Positions 11,129 to 62,515 of a stretch of DNA of 64,000 bases are shown piece after piece. Under the pieces are notes generated by a model that had not been told where the DNA came from, did no database searches, and saw only the letters and a program-made list of their open reading frames with translations. Both the position numbers and the translations under genes were made by a program. The stretch comes from Bacteroidota bacterium (GTDB lineage: Bacteria > Bacteroidota > Bacteroidia > UBA8524): positions 27,443 to 91,442 of the forward strand of contig WBUH01000002.1 in NCBI GenBank assembly GCA_008933805.1. The letters run 5' to 3'. The first letter of the stretch is position 1; the number at the start of each line of letters is the position of its first letter.

Positions 11129-13081
11129 ATGAATTGGGATAACGTGCTGAAAAAACCGTCAAAAAGTCATATACCCCGCTGGGTAATATTGCTTATAGAT
11201 TTAAGCATATGTCTTTTTTCGTTTGTTGTAGCCCATTACCTGCGTCATAATTTTATATTGACGTCTGAAAACTATACAGCGTTGTACGCCGCAATTCCGG
11301 TGTTCCTAACTGTTCGTTTTGTCTCATTCTATCTTACCAAAACTTACCACGGTATTGTTCGTTACTCAGGTACTCAGGATATCATCCGTATTTTTGTTAC
11401 TCTTTTAGTGGGCAGCATGGTGCTTGTAGCCACCAACATCGTTGCAAATAGCCTTCCCGCAATCAACCATTTTATAATTCCCCATTCAGTAGTAATTATA
11501 GATTTCTTTATCTCATTGGTATTAATGACTTCTTCGCGTTTTGCCTACAAACATTTGTATAAGCAAATCACAAAAAGCGATGGAGGTGTTAATGGCAACG
11601 GTATCGGTAAATTGAATGTTATTATTTACGGTGCAGGCGATTCAGGACTTATTACTAAACGTACGTTAGAGCAAGAAACCAAAAACCGCCAGCGTGTTAT
11701 TGCCTTTGTGGATGACAACCCCTCAAAAGCAAAAAAACGTATCGACGGGGTGCCTATTTACCATACTGAAACACATCTTGAGAAGTTATTGCGTGATAAT
11801 AAAGTGGACGAGGTGATTATCTCTATCCAAAACATTACCAAGCAACGTAAAAAAGATATTATCGAGGCTTGCCTTGCCCTGAACGTAAAGATTAAAGTAA
11901 TCCCTCCCGTTGAAAAATGGATTAACGGTGAGTTGAGTTTTAGCCAGTTTAAAAAGGTAAACATTGAAGAGTTGCTTGAAAGGGATGAGATACAACTTGA
12001 CCTTGAGAAAATAAGCGAGAACATCAAGGGTAAAACAATAATGATTACCGGTGCTGCCGGTTCTATAGGTAGTGAAATTGTACGCCAATTAATACCCTTT
12101 TACCCTAACAAATTGGTATTGGTTGACCAAGCTGAAACACCTTTGTATGAATTGGAGGGTAGACTTAAGGAACTGTTCAAACATCATGGGTTCAGCAAAA
12201 CGGTTGATATTATTATGGCAGACATCCGCTGCCACGAAAAGATAGAATATATAATAGCCAATTATAAGCCCGATATTATTTACCATGCTGCTGCATACAA
12301 ACATGTGCCGTTGATGGAGAACAACCCCGATGAGGCTATTAATACGAACGTGGGCGGTACCAAAACGCTTGCTGACCTTGCTGTGAAATACGGTATCCGT
12401 AAGTTTGTAATGGTATCTACCGATAAGGCAGTAAACCCTACCAACGTTATGGGGGCCAGCAAACGCATTGCTGAGATTTACGTTCAATCATTGAACAATT
12501 GGGAAGGCAATACCACTACCCGATTTATTACTACCCGTTTTGGCAATGTATTAGGCTCAAACGGCTCGGTAATTCCATTATTCAAGAAACAAATAGCCGA
12601 AGGAGGCCCGATAACCGTTACACACCCTGAAATCACCCGTTATTTTATGACTATTCCTGAAGCTTGCCAACTGGTGATTGAAGCCGGTAATATGGGCAGG
12701 GGAGGAGAGATATTTATTTTTGACATGGGACAGAGCGTGAAGATTGTTGATTTGGCCAAGAAGATGATAAAACTATCAGGGCTTACTTTGGGTAAAGATA
12801 TCAGTATAGAATTTACCGGCTTGCGTCCGGGTGAGAAACTGATGGAAGAGCTGTTGAATGATGCGGAAAACACTTTGCCAACGCATCACCCTAAAATTAC
12901 AATTGCAAAAATTAAACCCTACCACTACGAGGTGATCCAAGAAGAAGTAACTGCGCTTATCGAGTTGCTTAATGTAAGGGACACCGAGCTCATCGTTCGT
13001 AAGATGAAACAGATTGTTCCTGAGTTCATCAGCAACAATTCAGTGTTCACTTCGTTAGACGTTGTGAAACTACCTTCATAA
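11129..13081 (+). CDS. Polysaccharide biosynthesis protein CapD/WbpM/PglF-like (membrane-anchored NDP-sugar 4,6-dehydratase/epimerase)
   Basis: 650 aa. N-terminal 4-TM region, Rossmann motif MITGAAGSIGSEIVRQL, and catalytic YHAAAYKHVP. Directly downstream of the UpxY gene. Confidence 0.85.
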   Translation: MNWDNVLKKPSKSHIPRWVILLIDLSICLFSFVVAHYLRHNFILTSENYTALYAAIPVFLTVRFVSFYLTKTYHGIVRYSGTQDIIRIFVTLLVGSMVLVATNIVANSLPAINHFIIPHSVVIIDFFISLVLMTSSRFAYKHLYKQITKSDGGVNGNGIGKLNVIIYGAGDSGLITKRTLEQETKNRQRVIAFVDDNPSKAKKRIDGVPIYHTETHLEKLLRDNKVDEVIISIQNITKQRKKDIIEACLALNVKIKVIPPVEKWINGELSFSQFKKVNIEELLERDEIQLDLEKISENIKGKTIMITGAAGSIGSEIVRQLIPFYPNKLVLVDQAETPLYELEGRLKELFKHHGFSKTVDIIMADIRCHEKIEYIIANYKPDIIYHAAAYKHVPLMENNPDEAINTNVGGTKTLADLAVKYGIRKFVMVSTDKAVNPTNVMGASKRIAEIYVQSLNNWEGNTTTRFITTRFGNVLGSNGSVIPLFKKQIAEGGPITVTHPEITRYFMTIPEACQLVIEAGNMGRGGEIFIFDMGQSVKIVDLAKKMIKLSGLTLGKDISIEFTGLRPGEKLMEELLNDAENTLPTHHPKITIAKIKPYHYEVIQEEVTALIELLNVRDTELIVRKMKQIVPEFISNNSVFTSLDVVKLPS

Positions 13082-41046: not shown

Positions 41047-41145
41047 GACGGATTAAAATCCGTCGCTCCTAAGATTACAAAGCGTGGAGGGACTTAAGTC
41101 CCTCCACGCTTTGTAATTTTTACAGAATAGGATTTCAATCCTATT
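41047..41145. repeat. Three consecutive intergenic hairpins (family 1, family 2, plus one more)
   Basis: gacggattaaaatccgtc at 41047-41064. attacaaagcgtggaggGACTTAAGTCcctccacgctttgtaat at 41074-41117 (19-bp stem). aataggatttcaatcctatt at 41126-41145. Confidence 0.75.
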
Positions 41146-50063: not shown

Positions 50064-50091
50064 TTCACCGTATTACATAGTAAATAAAAAA

Positions 50092-50107
50092 GGGGCGCAA
50101 GCCCCTT
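50092..50107. terminator. Bidirectional terminator between the SOD gene and the cytochrome c gene
   Basis: aaaaaa ggggc gcaa gcccc tttttt: A-run, hairpin, T-run. Confidence 0.75.
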
Positions 50108-50109
50108 TT

Positions 50110-50469
50110 TTATTTTAAACTGTTTATCCATTTGGCAATAGCCAGTGCATCTTCTTGCGGTAAACGTTGGGGCAGCATCGGGGGGTAGCCCGGCCAGTTT
50201 TCAGGCTTGGGGTTATACATCAAACTCACCATTTGCTCATCAGTGTATCCTTTTTTAGCAACCTCATTAAAAGCAGGCCCTACTAATTTTTCACTTGGCT
50301 TATGGCAGGTAAGGCAAGTATGTTCGTCAAGCTTGGCTTGTATATCAGCAGGCGGCTCAATGGTGACTGTTTGCTGTGTGGCTTGTTCAGTACTTTGTGC
50401 GGGTTTCTTTTCATTTCCGCAGGCAGTCATTGCAAACCCTGCAATCATAAGAATCACGTAGTTTTTCAT
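50110..50469 (-). CDS. Class I c-type cytochrome, lipoprotein
   Basis: 119 aa. Lipobox MTACG. Single CLTCH haem site and a distal Met. Confidence 0.75.
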   Translation of the reverse strand: MKNYVILMIAGFAMTACGNEKKPAQSTEQATQQTVTIEPPADIQAKLDEHTCLTCHKPSEKLVGPAFNEVAKKGYTDEQMVSLMYNPKPENWPGYPPMLPQRLPQEDALAIAKWINSLK

Positions 50470-50662: not shown

Positions 50663-50872
50663 AAGTGGGACAGTTGTATGGCCCAGTTACGGTGTTATTT
50701 AGTTACGCGGTTATCGTGTTATTTTTGTTACGCACCGCGCAGGGGCTTGCGAAGTTCTACAAAGCAAAGGCAGTTTCAGGAGGTCAAAGAACTAGGCTGG
50801 ATAGTTTGTAATTGGAAACGGGTATAAATGAAGACTGGGCTTGCTCAAAAGTAAGGGGTTGAAAACTCTACT

Positions 50873-50926
50873 GTTACAATTACCTTTTTATGAAGGACTT
50901 AAGTCCTTCACAAAAAGGTAATTACA
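50873..50926. repeat. Family-2 hairpin element (TTACAA-stem-GACTTAAGTC-stem-TTGTAA)
   Basis: ttacaattacctttttatgaag GACTTAAGTC cttcacaaaaaggtaattacaa. Confidence 0.7.
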
Positions 50927-50986
50927 AAAGCGATAGGTTTTAACCTGTCGGGTTAGAAAAACACCGCAACACTCATATTTGATGCA

Positions 50987-51280
50987 CCCCGCTCCCATAA
51001 GTCTCTCCAGCAAACTGTGCAACAGCGACTTGTAAAAGCAAAAATACATCCTTTGTTAGGAAGGTAGCAACTATCAACGGCCATGTGCGCGGCTCCCCTC
51101 CTTGTGGAGGCTGAGCAAAGGACAAGGAGGGGTTGGGGGAGGTAGCATTAAACACAGCTTACCCCGCTCTCCCAAGTCTCTGCCTTCGGCTATGCAATAG
51201 GGGCTTGTAAGCCAAAGTTAAAATAAGCTTGTAACGTATTATTCACTTATAAAGTTGCAGTTTTATACGCAGGTGATAAT
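50987..51280. repeat. Composite repeat copy A: U1-U2-U1'-T
   Basis: Aligned by eye to copies B, C and D. U1 is ccccgctcccataagtctctccagcaaactgtgcaacagcgacttgtaa. U2 is the ~125-bp GC-rich unit containing ggccatgtgcgcggctcccctccttgtggaggctgagcaaagga(a/c)aaggaggggttgggggagg. The T tail is gccaaag(t/a)taaaataag(c/t)ttgtaacgtatt.... Confidence 0.8.
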
Positions 51281-51408
51281 TGAAATACTACCAGTTATCC
51301 AGCCCACTGTAGTAACGGTTACAAATACAGCCCATGTTTGTTGTGAAATTTGTAGGCACGGCTCATACTTCAAATTCCTTTCTCTATGTTACATACTTAG
51401 GCTATTTG

Positions 51409-51453
51409 CCCTCACAAGTCCCTGCCACTACAAGCCAAGCTACTGACTTGCGA
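51409..51453. repeat. Degenerate U1-like copy overlapping the 3' end of small ORF X1
   Basis: ccctcacaagtccctgccactacaagccaagctactgacttgcga compared with the U1 consensus. Confidence 0.5.
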
Positions 51454-51765
51454 GAGCGGCTTATTGTAAAAATTATTGGACTCTGCACCTCTAAAAACAA
51501 ACATCATTAGAATAATATTAATTGCAATTAAAAAATTCAAAATACTGATTATATAAGACCAGTTTCTACTCTTAACAACAACAAAACTTAAAAAACTAGT
51601 AATTACCATCCAAAGGGTAAATCCAATAAAATAAATTGCATCTCCTAAACCATAACCAAGATTGTAGTCAAAGAAACTAAAACTAATAAAGAAAAGACTA
51701 TATACTACAGCATAAAAAAAGAATGTTTTCTTCTTTATGTCTTTAATAATATCAGATTTTATCAT
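51412..51765 (-). CDS. Hypothetical small polytopic membrane protein (X1), AT-rich
   Basis: 117 aa, 3-4 hydrophobic segments, very AT-rich codons, no recognisable family. The 3' end overlaps the degenerate U1 repeat, so the true stop or extent is uncertain. Confidence 0.4.
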   Translation of the reverse strand: MIKSDIIKDIKKKTFFFYAVVYSLFFISFSFFDYNLGYGLGDAIYFIGFTLWMVITSFLSFVVVKSRNWSYIISILNFLIAINIILMMFVFRGAESNNFYNKPLSQVSSLACSGRDL

Positions 51766-51984
51766 TTTTTTGAGAGATTACTAATTTAGTTAAATAACCA
51801 TTGTCAGTTGTTTTTTAATTAATTCTGGATGATCAACATCAAATGAATATACATCTAACCACCAAATCCATTTATATAAGAATCAGACAGATCAATTAAT
51901 GTAGTTGTACGTAAATATTTGCCATCATCCCCATGACAATTAAATTCGGCCTGCTAATCCTCCTTGAACGCCGTCAATATTGTT

Positions 51985-52453
51985 CCACCCGTTCTCGTAA
52001 GTCTGTCGTAGGCAATGCACGGCAGGAACTTGTAAGAACAAAAATACATCCTTTGTTAGGAAGGTAGCAACTACAAACGGCCATGTGCGCGGCTCTCCTC
52101 CTTGTAGAGGTTGCGCAAAGGAAAAGGAGGGGTTGGGGGAGGTCGCAAAAACAAGGATCACCCCATTCTCCCAAGCCTCTACCGCAAACTGTGCAACAGC
52201 GACTTGTGAGAACAAAAATACATCCTTTGTTAGGAAGGTAGCAACTATCAACGGCCATGTGCGCGGCTCCCCTCCTTGTGGAGGCTGAGCAAAGGAAAAG
52301 GAGGGGTTGGGGGAGGTCGCAAAAACACGGCTCACCCCGTTCTCTCAAGTCCCCACCGCAAACTGTGCAACAGCGACTTGTAAGCCAAAGATAAAATAAG
52401 TTTGTAACGTATTCTTCACTTATAAAGTTGCAGTTTCATACGAAGGGGATAAT
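51985..52453. repeat. Composite repeat copy B: U1''-U2-U1-U2-U1-T (2.3 tandem units of ~175 bp)
   Basis: Two near-identical U2 units (52036-52161 and 52210-52336) separated by U1 copies. The T tail at 52384-52453 ends in tttgggacacc. Confidence 0.85.
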
Positions 52454-52470
52454 TTGGGACACCATCTGAA

Positions 52471-53091
52471 CTACCGATATAATCCCAAAAGATTTAATAA
52501 CGATGTTGCAAAAGATTTAAATTGTTTTTCAAAAAAAACAAACAGCTTTTCGTATTTGAAATAGTATATAAGCGATAACACAAATATTAATAAAATATAC
52601 AGTCGGTAGAAAAAAGTTCCTTTGTAAGGTAAATCAAACAACAAAGCTCCAAGAATAAAAATTGATGAAAAAACACCAAAAAAGAAACAAGAATAATTAA
52701 AGATAGATTGAGTGATTTCCAAATAAAAAGAATTTTCCTGCTCGAACTGGTCTTTTGAGTATTTTTTTAAAAGTAACATACAATAATAGCTTTTAAACCT
52801 TCTTTTAGTTTCAAAATAACATTTTGACATAATAGCTAAACAGAATGACATTTCTTTATAATCAAACTGTTCCGCTAATAGCATTAGTCGTCTGCTATTT
52901 GTACAATACTCCAATGCTTTTTGATACTTACATTTTTTATAATAGCTAAAACCCAAAATATTCAGCATATCAACCCTCTGCAATAAATTGACTCGCTGAG
53001 AGACCTCCATTTTTGAAACTGAATTAATTATTGCATCATACTCCTTATTCTCAAAATTTTCTATTATAGTTTCGAAGAGGTTCAATTTCAT
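52471..53091 (-). CDS. Hypothetical protein (X2): soluble alpha-helical N-domain plus two C-terminal TM helices, AT-rich
   Basis: 206 aa, no recognisable family. The start lies ~38 nt downstream (gene strand) of the reverse complement of repeat copy C. Confidence 0.4.
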   Translation of the reverse strand: MKLNLFETIIENFENKEYDAIINSVSKMEVSQRVNLLQRVDMLNILGFSYYKKCKYQKALEYCTNSRRLMLLAEQFDYKEMSFCLAIMSKCYFETKRRFKSYYCMLLLKKYSKDQFEQENSFYLEITQSIFNYSCFFFGVFSSIFILGALLFDLPYKGTFFYRLYILLIFVLSLIYYFKYEKLFVFFEKQFKSFATSLLNLLGLYR

Positions 53092-53129: not shown

Positions 53130-53250
53130 CCCCTGCTCCCATAAGTCTCTCCAGCAAGCTGTGCAACAGCTACTTGTAAGCCAAAGATAAAATAAGTTTG
53201 TAACGTATTCTTCTCAGCTAAAGTAACGGTTTATACGCTGAGGATAACCT
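53130..53250. repeat. Composite repeat copy C: U1-T (no U2)
   Basis: cccctgctcccataagtctctccagcaagctgtgcaacagctacttgtaa followed by gccaaagataaaataagtttgtaacgtattcttc.... Confidence 0.8.
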
Positions 53251-53310
53251 TGAACACATCTCTTAAACAAAACACATTGTATGTTTACATTCGATTTCAT
53301 TTCCTTTGAA

Positions 53311-53691
53311 TTAATTTGGATGATAGAATGTGAATTTATAAATCTCGTTTTTTGCTTTGATAACAAATAAAGTGTCAGAAAACGCGGGTTTGTAAACACT
53401 ATCATTTGGCTGTGCCAAATCATCAAAAAAAACACTTTTCCCATTTGTAGAGACAACATATGGATGAAAATAATACTTCGTAACACTATTTTTTAAAGAT
53501 ATTACTTGCATTTTTTCTCGATACTCAATATAGGAGATTAGTCCACTTAATTCTGTTGAATCAAAAAAATCAAAATGTTTTTTTAGTCTTCGGTTATTAA
53601 GATTGTTTACCAACAGATATCCCATTATTAAACAAAAAATAATCAGGGCTTTAACTTTAAATTTTTTTTCTTTTGTTCTTATTAAAATCAT
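53311..53691 (-). CDS. Hypothetical N-terminally membrane-anchored small protein (X3), AT-rich
   Basis: 126 aa. The N-terminal KALIIFCLIMGYLLV is a TM anchor, followed by a ~90-aa soluble domain. No recognisable family. Confidence 0.4.
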   Translation of the reverse strand: MILIRTKEKKFKVKALIIFCLIMGYLLVNNLNNRRLKKHFDFFDSTELSGLISYIEYREKMQVISLKNSVTKYYFHPYVVSTNGKSVFFDDLAQPNDSVYKPAFSDTLFVIKAKNEIYKFTFYHPN

Positions 53692-53712: not shown

Positions 53713-53790
53713 CTCCCCAACTCCCACAAGCCTCTCCCGTAAATTGTAAAGCAGGGGCTTGTGCGTGGGAGATAAAATTGGGTTAAAGCT
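53713..53790. repeat. Degenerate repeat copy D (U1'-like plus T-like), immediately 5' of X3 on the gene strand
   Basis: ccccaactcccacaagcctctcccgtaaattgtaaagcaggggcttgtg, then cgtgggagataaaattgggttaaagc (compare T: aagccaaagataaaataagtttgtaacg). Confidence 0.55.
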
Positions 53791-53801
53791 ATATTATGTT
53801 C

Positions 53802-55766
53802 TTACTCCCTCACAAACTTAGTAACACCCTTGTACCCGTTGCCTTGCACTTGAATAAAGTAAATACCTGCGGGCAAATCAGCGATAGGTAACGTATTAGT
53901 ACCATTTTCAATGGCAAAGGTACGTACCACTTGTCCCACAAGGTTCATAAGGCTGCCCTTAAGAGCAGGGCCGTTAAAGCCGGCGGGAGCAATGGTAAGT
54001 TCAGTTGTAGCAGGGTTGGGGTACACAGCCAGTTGCAAGTTCGTTTCAGCCAATTGGTCTATCCCCGCGGGGAAGGTAATATCCGTACTGTCAAACATCC
54101 CTTGGCTCAAATTATAATACGTACCCGATGGAGTAGTCTCCTTTTTCACCGCACGCACCATATATACGTTGTGGCCTTGCAAAGGGTCATTGTCAACAAA
54201 GCTAGTACCGTTTACCAACGTAAGATTGACCTTCACATACTTGCCGTACAAATGCGGGGCGCGGTACACGTGGTAGCCCACCACATTAGCATCGGTAGAG
54301 GCCGTCCAGCTTACCGTTACCTTTTTTGTACCCGTTTCAACAGCGTCAATAGTAGTAGGGGCTAACGCTACGTGCATACGCAGGGTAGGGTCGCCCATCA
54401 GCGCAATGTGTATCAAGCGTTGCGAGCCGTTAAAGTTTCCTTCATACAATGTGCCGTTTTCGTTTTGGGTAAGTCGCGCACCGTATCCGATACATTCGCC
54501 CAATGCCATGTGGTGCAATGCCCAGTTGGGAATACCGCCCCAAAAACTTGCCAGTATCGAAGGTTTTGAAGCCAATGCAGCACGCAACAAAGCATCTTGG
54601 ATGTCCCAATCGCCAAAATAACTGCCTGCCAGCGAGGTGAAAATGGTTTTAATGCTATCCGCAGCAAACTGTGCGGTGTTGATTACTCCGCCGCAAGACG
54701 AGTACCAACCGCCGCCGCAAGCCCCGCTCCATAAATACCAGTCTTTTTTCAAATCAGCATTGTAGTCAACGCCGTTGTTCACATTGTCTACAATGTTTGC
54801 AGAGCCCACCATGGGCGCAAAGTTTCGCCAGTTTGACGAAGCAATTGTAAACGATTGAAAATTATCGTCAATCAACGCCCTTGCAGGGGCAGTAAGCTGT
54901 CCAATGCGGTAGCTGTGGTTTTTTTGCAGGTAGTAACGCAGCAACGCCGTATCACTTTGTCCCGCAAAAGCAGGCAAGCGAGAAAGGTCAACGCGGCCTA
55001 CCATTAAATCCACATCGCTATCAAACTGGCTGGCATCAAACTTACCATCACCGGGTTGGTTTTTATTCTCAGCCCTTGATGCCGACGAAGTACTTACAAT
55101 ATTATCCGTCCACAAACCATCTACATCACCGTAATACCCGTCGCAAGGCCAAGCCCCCGAATGGTCGGGGTGTCCGTCAGGGTATATACTCCCTGAATAG
55201 GGGACAGGTACTCTTCCCAACAGAAACACGGCTTTCACATTAGGTACAGTCTTTATTTTATCCCTAACCGCCGTAACTGCATCGGTACGTTCAGTGATAA
55301 TGCGTTGCACTTGCCAGCCGTCACCAATCAAATCTTTTTCAAGCATGGCAATTTCGGTGGCCAGCGGTTGCAAATAATTATTATCAATCACAAGCGCAAG
55401 CGTGCCGTGCTGTTCTTCGACAGCATGGTTTATACCGGCATACACACTGCCCAGTGCGCCCGTGCTTCCGCCTTCTTTAAATACCAAATACTCGTAGGCT
55501 TGACCCACGGTAACCGCATTATCGGTATAAGTACTGTCGCCCGTGCCAAGGTTAGCATACACATTGCCCCAGTCCTTATCTTCCTTCGCTTTTCTAAACA
55601 CCCGTATGCGGGTAGCATCAGTAAACTTTGGAAATTTAAGGGTAATAGCAGCCGGACTTTCGCTTACCGTTGCCGTAACCAACACCGAACGGTTTTTATT
55701 GAATTGTGCCGTTACAGCCGTTGAAACAAGAAATAGAAGTGAGGTAACGAGTAGAGTTTTTTTCAT
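53802..55766 (-). CDS. T9SS C-terminal-sorting-domain secreted protein of unknown function (possibly a cysteine-peptidase-like or adhesin-like cargo)
   Basis: Start trimmed to MKKTLLVTSLLFLVSTAVTAQ (signal peptide). The track's N-terminal extension to 55946 runs into the hairpin cluster. The C-terminus is LAVYPNPATTELTI...GIYFIQVQGNGYKGVTKFVRE, a type-A T9SS sorting domain. The Cys-containing central region is unassigned. Confidence 0.55.
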   Translation of the reverse strand: MKKTLLVTSLLFLVSTAVTAQFNKNRSVLVTATVSESPAAITLKFPKFTDATRIRVFRKAKEDKDWGNVYANLGTGDSTYTDNAVTVGQAYEYLVFKEGGSTGALGSVYAGINHAVEEQHGTLALVIDNNYLQPLATEIAMLEKDLIGDGWQVQRIITERTDAVTAVRDKIKTVPNVKAVFLLGRVPVPYSGSIYPDGHPDHSGAWPCDGYYGDVDGLWTDNIVSTSSASRAENKNQPGDGKFDASQFDSDVDLMVGRVDLSRLPAFAGQSDTALLRYYLQKNHSYRIGQLTAPARALIDDNFQSFTIASSNWRNFAPMVGSANIVDNVNNGVDYNADLKKDWYLWSGACGGGWYSSCGGVINTAQFAADSIKTIFTSLAGSYFGDWDIQDALLRAALASKPSILASFWGGIPNWALHHMALGECIGYGARLTQNENGTLYEGNFNGSQRLIHIALMGDPTLRMHVALAPTTIDAVETGTKKVTVSWTASTDANVVGYHVYRAPHLYGKYVKVNLTLVNGTSFVDNDPLQGHNVYMVRAVKKETTPSGTYYNLSQGMFDSTDITFPAGIDQLAETNLQLAVYPNPATTELTIAPAGFNGPALKGSLMNLVGQVVRTFAIENGTNTLPIADLPAGIYFIQVQGNGYKGVTKFVRE

Positions 55767-55844: not shown

Positions 55845-56181
55845 GCAGCAGGTTTTATACCTGCTGTGATGTGAGGATACAACAGCGACGGGTTTTACAC
55901 CCGTCGGCAAGAATGGTTTCATACCCTTTGCAAAACGGGTTCTCAATAGCGACGGGTTTCATACCCGTCGTAATAGGTAGGATAACAACGATGGGTTTTA
56001 CACCCATCGGTCAGAAAAGGTTTCATTCCCGCCATTAATACCCTGAATATAAAATTCAGGTCTTTTATGTGTAACGTTCCGAATGGTCTTAAACCATTCG
56101 GAACGAATCATTGCAAAACAGCGACGGGTTTTATACCCGTCGTAATAGGAGGGATAATAACGATGGGTTTTATACCCATCG
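55845..56181. repeat. Cluster of 8 family-1 hairpin repeats (GG-TTTYAHA-CC loop core with covarying stems), BIME-like
   Basis: gcagcaggttttatacctgctg. cgacgggttttacacccgtcg. cgacgggtttcatacccgtcg. cgatgggttttacacccatcg. ctgaatataaaattcag. cgttccgaatggtcttaaaccattcggaacg. cgacgggttttatacccgtcg. cgatgggttttatacccatcg. A ~55-bp doublet (gacggg hairpin, taatagg-gggataa spacer, gatggg hairpin) occurs twice. Confidence 0.85.
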
Positions 56182-56205
56182 ACCAAAATAAGGTTTCAAA
56201 CAGCC

Positions 56206-61968: not shown

Positions 61969-62318
61969 AGACTTAAGTCTGCCTTCGGCTTTTTAACTGT
62001 ATAAGCAGCTAACGTTGCGAATGGTTTTAAACCATTCGCAACGAACCCTTGCAAAAGAGACGGGCTTTATGCCCGTCGGGGGTTGGACGGAATAAAGCCC
62101 ATTGTTATTTTGGGTTTAAAAACCCCACTATTACAATTACCAATCGAGAGATGACTTAAGTCCTCTCTCGCATTGTAATCACAAAAGAGACGGATTTTAA
62201 TCCGTCGCAGCAAAAAATACCCTTGCGCTTTAAAAACAACAGATTAAAACCTGTTGAACCGACTGATACAAAACGTTGTCTTGCGTTAAGACATTCCGAA
62301 TGATTTTAAACCATTTGG
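61969..62318. repeat. Intergenic cluster mixing both hairpin families (about 7 hairpins), starting with a bidirectional terminator
   Basis: aaaaagccgaaggcaGACTTAAGTCtgccttcggcttttt at 61965-62005. gcgaatggttttaaaccattcgc at 62037-62059. gacgggctttatgcccgtc at 62079-62097. gggtttaaaaaccc. ttacaattaccaatcgagagatGACTTAAGTCctctctcgcattgtaat at 62151-62199. gacggattttaatccgtc at 62209-62226. ccgaatgattttaaaccatttgg at 62296-62318. Confidence 0.8.
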
Positions 62319-62515
62319 GATGTTGCTGAATTAAACAGCTTACAAGTTTTGTAACCTGCCTCAAATACACTAAGAAGCAAAATAGTTGTTAATAGCGACT
62401 TAGTGTCTTCGTGGCAAAATAGTAAACTCCATCCGTGGACGTTATTTTGACTTTTTAGCCACTCCTTTTAACGTTAAAAAGTAGCAGGTTTCAACCAGTT
62501 GCATAAATTCGTAAC

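Follow-up and report, generated by a model that had tools for sequence, protein, structure and literature searches.

How small accessory genes of unrelated origin are kept apart, expressed and exchanged is the question raised by a strain-variable islet in the genome of an uncultured Bacteroidota bacterium, of which we analyzed 64,000 nucleotides (contig WBUH01000002.1 of assembly GCA_008933805.1; hereafter, the window). The islet lies between a cytochrome c gene and a T9SS cargo gene and holds three minus-strand ORFs, X1-X3, separated by copies of a hairpin-containing repeat (Table 1). These cassettes have a GC content of 25-29%, compared to 45-50% in the flanks. A preliminary description of the sequence had proposed that a sigma-A promoter is packaged inside the repeat, giving each small ORF a structured leader, as expected of self-expressing cassettes.

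Table 1 Islet genes, repeat copies and promoter-like boxes (positions in the window).
Feature	Position	Strand	Description
cytochrome c gene	50110-50469	minus	downstream flank of islet
copy A	50987-51290		layout U-body-U-T
copy A, U	50987-51035, 51162-51210		
copy A, body	51036-51161		
copy A, T	51211-51290		
body boxes	51039-51046 (A), 52039-52046 and 52213-52220 (B)	minus	TATTTTTG, beside the U of each body
copy A box	51213-51220	minus	TAACTTTG, T junction
V	51386-51462	minus	inverted U and start of T (eighth U); overlaps 3' end of X1 ORF
X1	51412-51765	minus	117 aa, membrane-like cassette ORF
copy B	51987-52462		layout U-body-U-body-U-T
copy B, U	51987-52035, 52161-52209, 52335-52383		
copy B, bodies	52036-52160, 52210-52334		
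copy B, T	52384-52462		
copy B box	52386-52393	minus	TATCTTTG, T junction; identical to copy C box
X2	52471-53091	minus	206-aa ORFan cassette, hydrophobic C-terminus
copy C			layout U-T
U_C	53131-53179		49-nt hairpin unit; core stem AAGTC/GACTT, inner stem CTGT/ACAG
T_C tail	53180-53262		linker GCCAAAGATAAAATAAGTTTGTAACGTATTC, H2 (53211-53218 with 53237-53244), end box GATAACCTTG
copy C box	53182-53189	minus	TATCTTTG, exact sigma-A -7 box; T_C/U_C junction, upstream of X2
opposite-strand motif	53193-53200	plus	TAAGTTTG, preceded by TTG at 16-nt spacing (cTTG-N16-TAAGTTTG)
X3	53311-53691	minus	126-aa cassette ORF, N-terminal helix and small beta domain
copy D	53716-53801		U_D and degenerate, truncated tail directly after cargo stop codon
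T9SS cargo gene (Por_Secre_tail)	53802-55766	minus	upstream anchor of islet

The cassette proteins are ORFans without relation to one another, and Pfam searches at E ≤ 1 gave nothing beyond noise for nine of them and for the antitoxin of a relative described below (L009). X2 is known only from its own MAG and shows a sub-threshold TPR match; exact look-ups of X2, X1 and a small flank ORF returned no record. The only homologues of X3 are P0002 (90% identity, same locus) and P0003 (63%, different locus and organism), and its predicted structure (pLDDT 76) has no structural neighbour in the PDB at E < 0.1. Four homologues of X1, of 91-116 aa, were found in the representative library. They align only to X1 residues 4-96, and none of them has a counterpart to the final ~20 residues, whose codons extend into the inverted U of V (window 51412-51470). 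Thus, the C-terminal extension of X1 is probably repeat-derived. The order X3-X2-X1 and the number of 174-nt repeat units are those of the MAG assembly, the sole source for X2, B, X1 and A. Logan contigs from this strain, which are independent of the MAG, are 100% identical to the window and end at 53172 (inside U_C) and 50945 (just before A), and contigs of other assemblies break at the repeats.

The repeat is modular and follows the layout U-(body-U)n-T, where n is 0, 1 or 2. U is a 49-nt hairpin unit with seven plus-orientation copies in the window, the body is a 125-nt GC-rich module in three copies, and T is a tail of ~80 nt composed of the linker GCCAAAGATAAAATAAGTTTGTAACGTATTC, a second hairpin (H2) and the end box GATAATTTGGGA. 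The stems of H2 differ between copies and the pairing is kept (TCACTT/AGGTGA in A, TTCTCAGC/GCTGAGGA in C, and TTATCCTTTTGT/ACAAAGGTGATAA in L018a, a T copy from another organism). Spurious ORFs, the longest of 131 aa, arise from the tandem 174-nt units at 51940-52348 (minus) and 52083-52394 (plus), with internal repeats of the form ..SPNPSFSFAQPPQGGEPRTWP.., and the 131-aa pseudo-ORF, searched as a protein to find further copies, gave no homologues. Profiles of U and T had no other matches in the 64-kb window or in ~190 kb of other fetched loci; in all sequence examined, the two units occur only at AT-rich ORFan cassette islets, at two independent loci in two organisms. Exact-pattern scans for T and U gave 0 matches in genome (GTDB), metagenome (JGI) and viral contig collections, and a blastn search of copy B against plasmids and phages had no match at the sensitivity used. 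The repeat is a lineage-restricted spacer between the unrelated AT-rich mini-genes of a strain-variable islet.

Palindromic intergenic repeats are abundant elsewhere in this genome. Two further families of short hairpin repeats, one of the type AACAGCGACGGGTTTTACACCCGTCGG and the other TAACGTTCCGAATGGTCTTAAACCATTCGGAACGA, occur upstream of the cargo gene (55881-56188) and near 62 kb (62010-62085 and 62289-62338). Long, near-perfect and loopless palindromes with arms of 30-46 nt around the centre GGACTTAAGTCC lie at 50855-50930, 41050-41141 and 62112-62164. The palindrome at 50871-50930 adjoins copy A and is conserved in L009.

To follow the islet across genomes, close relatives were identified through the cargo protein, which is 99% identical in L009 and 93% identical in L008. 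L009 is a GTDB representative with 95-96% DNA identity to the window; its title, 'MAG: Agrobacterium sp. 719_389', looks mislabelled. Both relatives carry entirely different ORFs between the same flanks, and the cassette idea thereby gained support. L009 and the window are homologous in DNA up to the end of U_D (53707) and again from within the first U of copy A (U_A1, 51004), and the 1.9 kb between these breakpoints have different content, including two other small ORFs. A ParE-family toxin gene and its upstream 81-aa partner lie at 13238-13790 of L009 on the strand opposite to the other cassettes, and this toxin-antitoxin pair adjoins a U made of two long arms. The L008 islet contains two further unrelated ORFs and no U, and closes on CCCCAAATTATCACCTTTGTATAAAAAAGTTG, which comprises the T end box and the beginning of H2. 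More distant cargo homologues (L010-L017) have no AT-rich islet downstream. Near the islet, a second variable spot was seen in one strain (L004), in which an extra 196-aa ORF (1400-2340) lies between the superoxide dismutase and cytochrome c genes, the insertion adjoining a small inverted repeat (window 50082-50115).

Parts of the repeat also recur outside this locus. The X3 homologue with 63% identity lies in a different organism (L018) downstream of an RND efflux operon, in an array that is entered by a T copy (L018a) and ends with TCCCAAATTATC joined to an inverted U (11640-11704), which is 86% identical to V of the window. The DNA homology between the two X3 genes starts ~30 nt ahead of the ATG, near the end of U_D, and continues for ~65 nt beyond the stop codon, and the T block is conserved between the organisms to an extent similar to or above that of the neighbouring ORF. 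At the strain level, X3 of the window (53311-53691) and of L020 (2217-2597) share 95% DNA identity, compared to 86% for the last 600 nt of the adjacent cargo gene and 90% for the whole 2.7-kb contig. This difference suggests that the X3 cassette was recently exchanged between strains. The codon differences between the two X3 genes, twelve non-synonymous and seven synonymous, indicate relaxed constraint. U_D is far more diverged than its flanks in this comparison and shows a compensatory C.G to T.A change.

Cassettes are replaced between fixed flanks with breakpoints at or inside U, and the repeats most likely act as portable homology or recombination sites in addition to any role in expression. 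One explanation takes this further and regards U, possibly together with the T end box TCCCAAATTATC, as the site of an integron-like or rAID-1-like system whose recombinase is encoded elsewhere, with the promoter box secondary. Besides the position of the breakpoints, the inverted ParE toxin-antitoxin cassette beside a long-armed U in L009, the presence of U in both orientations (V of the window and of L018), the movement of X3, accompanied by T-like sequence, to another locus in a second organism, and the low GC content of the cassettes relative to the flanks are consistent with such a system. Several observations argue against it. Recombinase or transposase domains, including the tyrosine recombinase domain (PF00589), were absent from the scanned ORFs of at least 150 aa in the 64 kb, a scan that left out five overlapping and probably spurious ORFs, and none is listed among the precomputed Pfam domains of the 10 kb that precede the L018 array. 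Integron attC sites are bounded by two core sites, R'' (RYYYAAC) and R' (GTTRRRY). A pair of this kind was found on neither strand between 50900 and 53900, the few single matches lying outside the repeats, and attC identity of the repeat was rejected on these grounds. Folded attC sites form a single imperfect palindrome over their whole length, with bases left extrahelical (PMC4889954), and U and T together do not form one long palindrome of this kind. Moreover, no more than ordinary homologous recombination between repeats and flanks is needed to produce these patterns. We consider a dedicated site-specific system of this type improbable.

The islet resembles integrons and CALINs in its small, AT-rich, mostly co-oriented ORFan cassettes, each followed by a hairpin repeat of ~120 nt, in its strain-variable content and in the toxin-antitoxin cassette of a relative. 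Unlike an integron, it lacks IntI, R''/R' core sites and an attC-type palindrome, and integron cassettes are usually promoterless, unlike the boxed modules proposed here. Hardly any integrons are known from Bacteroidetes (10.1101/2022.02.28.482270). Within the phylum, the system that comes closest is rAID-1 of gut Bacteroidales, which combines skewed GC content and repetitive intergenic sequences with a XerD-like recombinase and integron-like features (10.1101/471110). The islet shares with it the phylum, the skewed GC content and the repetitive intergenic sequence between small genes. It differs in the absence of a XerD-like recombinase at the array end in the sequence examined, in its much smaller array and in cassettes without a match to any immunity family. 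It would be a long shot that the U hairpins and T end boxes are the sites of an undescribed integron-like cassette system of environmental Bacteroidota, with the recombinase acting in trans, sites unrelated to attC and a sigma-A promoter for each module, by which each captured ORF would be expressed on its own. In a separate comparison, the body junction GTATTTTTGT matched 9 of the 10 positions of the CTnDOT-type core, GTANNTTTGC, but this match is essentially the promoter consensus itself and was discarded.

A further parallel for the exchange itself is provided by the minimal mobile elements of Neisseria, in which different cassettes occupy the same site between conserved flanks and are exchanged by homologous recombination without a dedicated recombinase. 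The islet is alike in that strains hold different cassettes between fixed flanking genes. It is unlike them in that its interior is divided up by repeats, parts of which are found again at a different locus of another organism.

On the gene strand, the T/U junction of copy C carries TATCTTTG, an exact match to the Bacteroidota sigma-A -7 consensus TAnnTTTG, as had been noted in the preliminary description (the reverse complement of 53176-53215 is gaagaatacgttacaaacttatttTATCTTTGgcttac). It is the sole exact box in the 179-nt intergenic region upstream of X2. In Flavobacterium, the -7 box occupies positions -12 to -5 (PMC9723704). A start predicted 5 nt after the G of the octamer lands on an A at ~53177, the first base of the U stem, and would give X2 a leader of 86 nt, with U ending 39 nt before the ATG (53091). 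For X2, the predicted leader thus agrees in length and layout with the proposed 80-130 nt with U ahead of the start codon; its structured character is weak in copy C. The same layout does not hold for the other two ORFs. In copy D, upstream of X3, the gene strand has TATCTCCC and does not match the consensus, and X1 shares the arrangement only loosely: the exact box nearest to it is body-borne and lies 273 nt upstream (52039-52046) instead of 80-130 nt, and the T box of copy B is ~620 nt from the ATG.

The position of the box is nevertheless regular across the repeat. All six U copies that are not first in the series, at three T junctions and three body junctions, have an exact gene-strand box 4-5 nt upstream, measured from TTTG to the first stem base (ACAAG), so that transcription would start at the foot of U at each of them. 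The three versions of the box (TATCTTTG, TAACTTTG and TATTTTTG) differ at the free 'nn' positions, and, by reading, about a third of the T and body positions around the boxes vary. The first-position copies behind the cargo gene have no box, reading TATCTCCC in D, TCATCTCC in L020 and TGTCTTTG in L009. The box is degenerate at just those junctions where read-through from the cargo gene could stand in for it. The cargo gene also bears a motif of this type: the octamer TAAGTTTG occurs exactly at 53813-53820 (minus) in the last cargo codons (..TKFV..), 121 nt before the ATG of X3, as the nearest exact box to this ORF, and the 3' ends of the cargo genes in L009 and L008 carry the same sequence. 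This box might serve the first cassette as an internal promoter.

Several features limit the weight of the boxes. TAnnTTTG matches are not enriched in the window (78, compared to 85.9 ± 8.8 in shuffles), and the match of TATCTTTG by itself therefore proves little; the six boxes are paralogous copies and do not constitute independent evidence. The genes of the window do employ this motif, however: a match lies 1-99 nt upstream of the start codon in 16 of 46 of them, and also upstream of the tRNA-Cys gene. For X2, the 90 nt between box and ATG are at the long end for this genome. In Bacteroidota promoters, a -33 element (TTTG or TTG) is expected ~19-21 nt upstream of the -7 box. T has no TTG at a usable spacing, none occurring within the 30 nt upstream of the T-type box; only the body-type boxes are preceded, by reading, by a TTG at 21 nt. 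In the other putative promoters of the window, a -33 element is likewise difficult to discern. The site is thus like Bacteroidota sigma-A promoters (-33 TTTG / -7 TAnnTTTG) in its exact -7 octamer and in the predicted start on an A, and unlike them in the missing -33 element of T and in the rather long 86-nt leader. Gene-strand boxes are absent from L018a, the only cross-species copy of T, which reads TATACTGA, from V and the inverted copies, and from the L009 copies including the last U. No intrinsic terminators were reported in the repeats or between the cargo gene and X1, so that read-through is a live alternative for the expression of all three ORFs. Promoter activity of the repeat box is plausible.

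Taken together, we favor the reading that the repeat is a portable module between genes, a source of a promoter and hairpins and of homology for recombination, to which we assign a probability of roughly 0.4. Such a module would partition a variable islet of AT-rich ORFan mini-genes that reaches from the cargo gene to the cytochrome c gene. Transcription starting at the foot of U would provide the downstream ORF with its own promoter and with a 5'-terminal hairpin, which may stabilize the mRNA, and H2 of T would become part of the 3' untranslated region that follows the upstream ORF. The repeats would at the same time be portable homology, or possibly recombination sites, for the swapping of cassettes.

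A more conservative account is that the repeat belongs to a REP/BOX-like family of palindromic repeats, selfish or structural, that the boxes are incidental duplicates of AT-rich sequence, and that the ORFs are expressed by read-through or from the cargo-borne TAAGTTTG. The lack of enrichment of the motif, the loss of the box in L018a, V and L009, the missing terminators between the cargo gene and X1, and the exact box inside the cargo 3' end (53813-53820) are all in line with this account, as are the several other hairpin repeat families in the window and the state of U_D, which has diverged much more than its flanks when the window is compared with L020, in keeping with gene conversion between repeat copies. 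The layout U-(body-U)n-T also resembles BOX A-Bn-C (PMC3049150). It is harder to reconcile with the restriction of U and T to cassette islets at two independent loci and organisms in the sequence examined, with the retention of the box at six of six internal junctions and its loss at first-position ones, and with the conservation of the T block across organisms at or above the level of the neighbouring ORF. We regard this account as rather doubtful.

Known intergenic repeats show where the resemblance ends. BOX elements of S. pneumoniae have the modular structure boxA-boxBn-boxC (PMC3049150), and the present repeat is like these and the BIMEs of E. coli in its modularity, its variable number of internal units (n = 0-2) and its hairpin potential. 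Unlike BOX elements and BIMEs, it separates unrelated ORFan cassettes and marks the breakpoints of cassette replacement. Correia elements of Neisseria and mobile promoters are short intergenic repeats whose promoters or hairpins alter the expression of adjacent genes (PMC2649163, PMC3488235). Like them, the repeat is intergenic and carries a promoter-like box and hairpins; unlike Correia elements, its copies are, in the sequence examined, clustered in one islet and not dispersed, and the sequences are not similar. Neither terminal inverted repeats nor a target duplication of the Correia type were found, the unit ends CTCCCATAAGTC and GTCCCAAATTATC being only loosely alike.

The opposite strand was also considered. 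The preliminary description had pointed to a TTG-N16-box arrangement on the plus strand of T, and this was confirmed, with TAAGTTTG lying within ATAAGTTTGTAAC, the best conserved block of T. A functional plus strand could mean that TAAGTTTG drives a short H2 RNA or an antisense transcript, or that CATATTTG, a near-consensus at 50973-50980 ahead of copy A, drives a small RNA spanning U-body-U-T. The conservation of ATAAGTTTGTAAC and the exact TAAGTTTG in B, C and L018a (by reading, also in the first copy of L009) are consistent with this possibility, as is the pairing of H2 kept through different stem sequences. At the same time, copy A carries TAAGCTTG in place of TAAGTTTG, the body units are without a plus-strand box, the TTG spacing is 16 nt, and no terminator follows H2.

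Folding and RNA searches bear on the same possibility. Across 12 copies the U hairpin is clearly present, with 77% of cells paired compared to ~40% with slid partners. Covariation in U, which the preliminary description had proposed to analyze, was marginal, the observed score being reached by 30 of 500 shuffles for the 12 copies. On the mRNA strand, U of copy C alone folds at -8.7 kcal/mol with the terminal stem outside the minimum-energy fold, and the 144-nt region of U and T, which forms two separate local hairpins, folds no better than shuffles (z = 0.89 and 0.38). On the gene strand, the hairpin of V is strong (-25.8 kcal/mol). For the inverted copies (V of the window and of L018), as for the last U of L009, folding is much better in the plus-strand orientation of U, which favors a plus-strand RNA. 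Against it, the folding z-scores are unremarkable, and Rfam 15 gave no match in the repeats at the gathering score or at E ≤ 5. A bias to G.U pairs on the plus strand, seen by eye in the stems of U, H2 and the body, was dropped as a signal, since the counts (28 G.U and 19 A.C in 12 copies) are not significantly different and the seven U copies of the window show no bias (9 G.U and 11 A.C). A terminator formed by a body-closing stem and a U-run was also rejected; its 3' arm is not conserved between the three bodies, and no terminator-like site results. On balance, a functional plus-strand transcript appears very unlikely.

If the box is active, the islet would be a Bacteroidota example of promoters spread by an intergenic repeat, in which each small accessory gene would have its own start and a hairpin-capped leader, and read-through from the neighbouring gene would not predict the expression of the accessory genes. 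As it stands, this is a plausible but ordinary case of a promoter in a repeat, from an uncultured lineage. The wider pattern, in which ORFans are swapped at repeat boundaries and parts of the repeat occur in another organism, matters more than the box, and hints at a route of cassette exchange in a phylum that is nearly without integrons.
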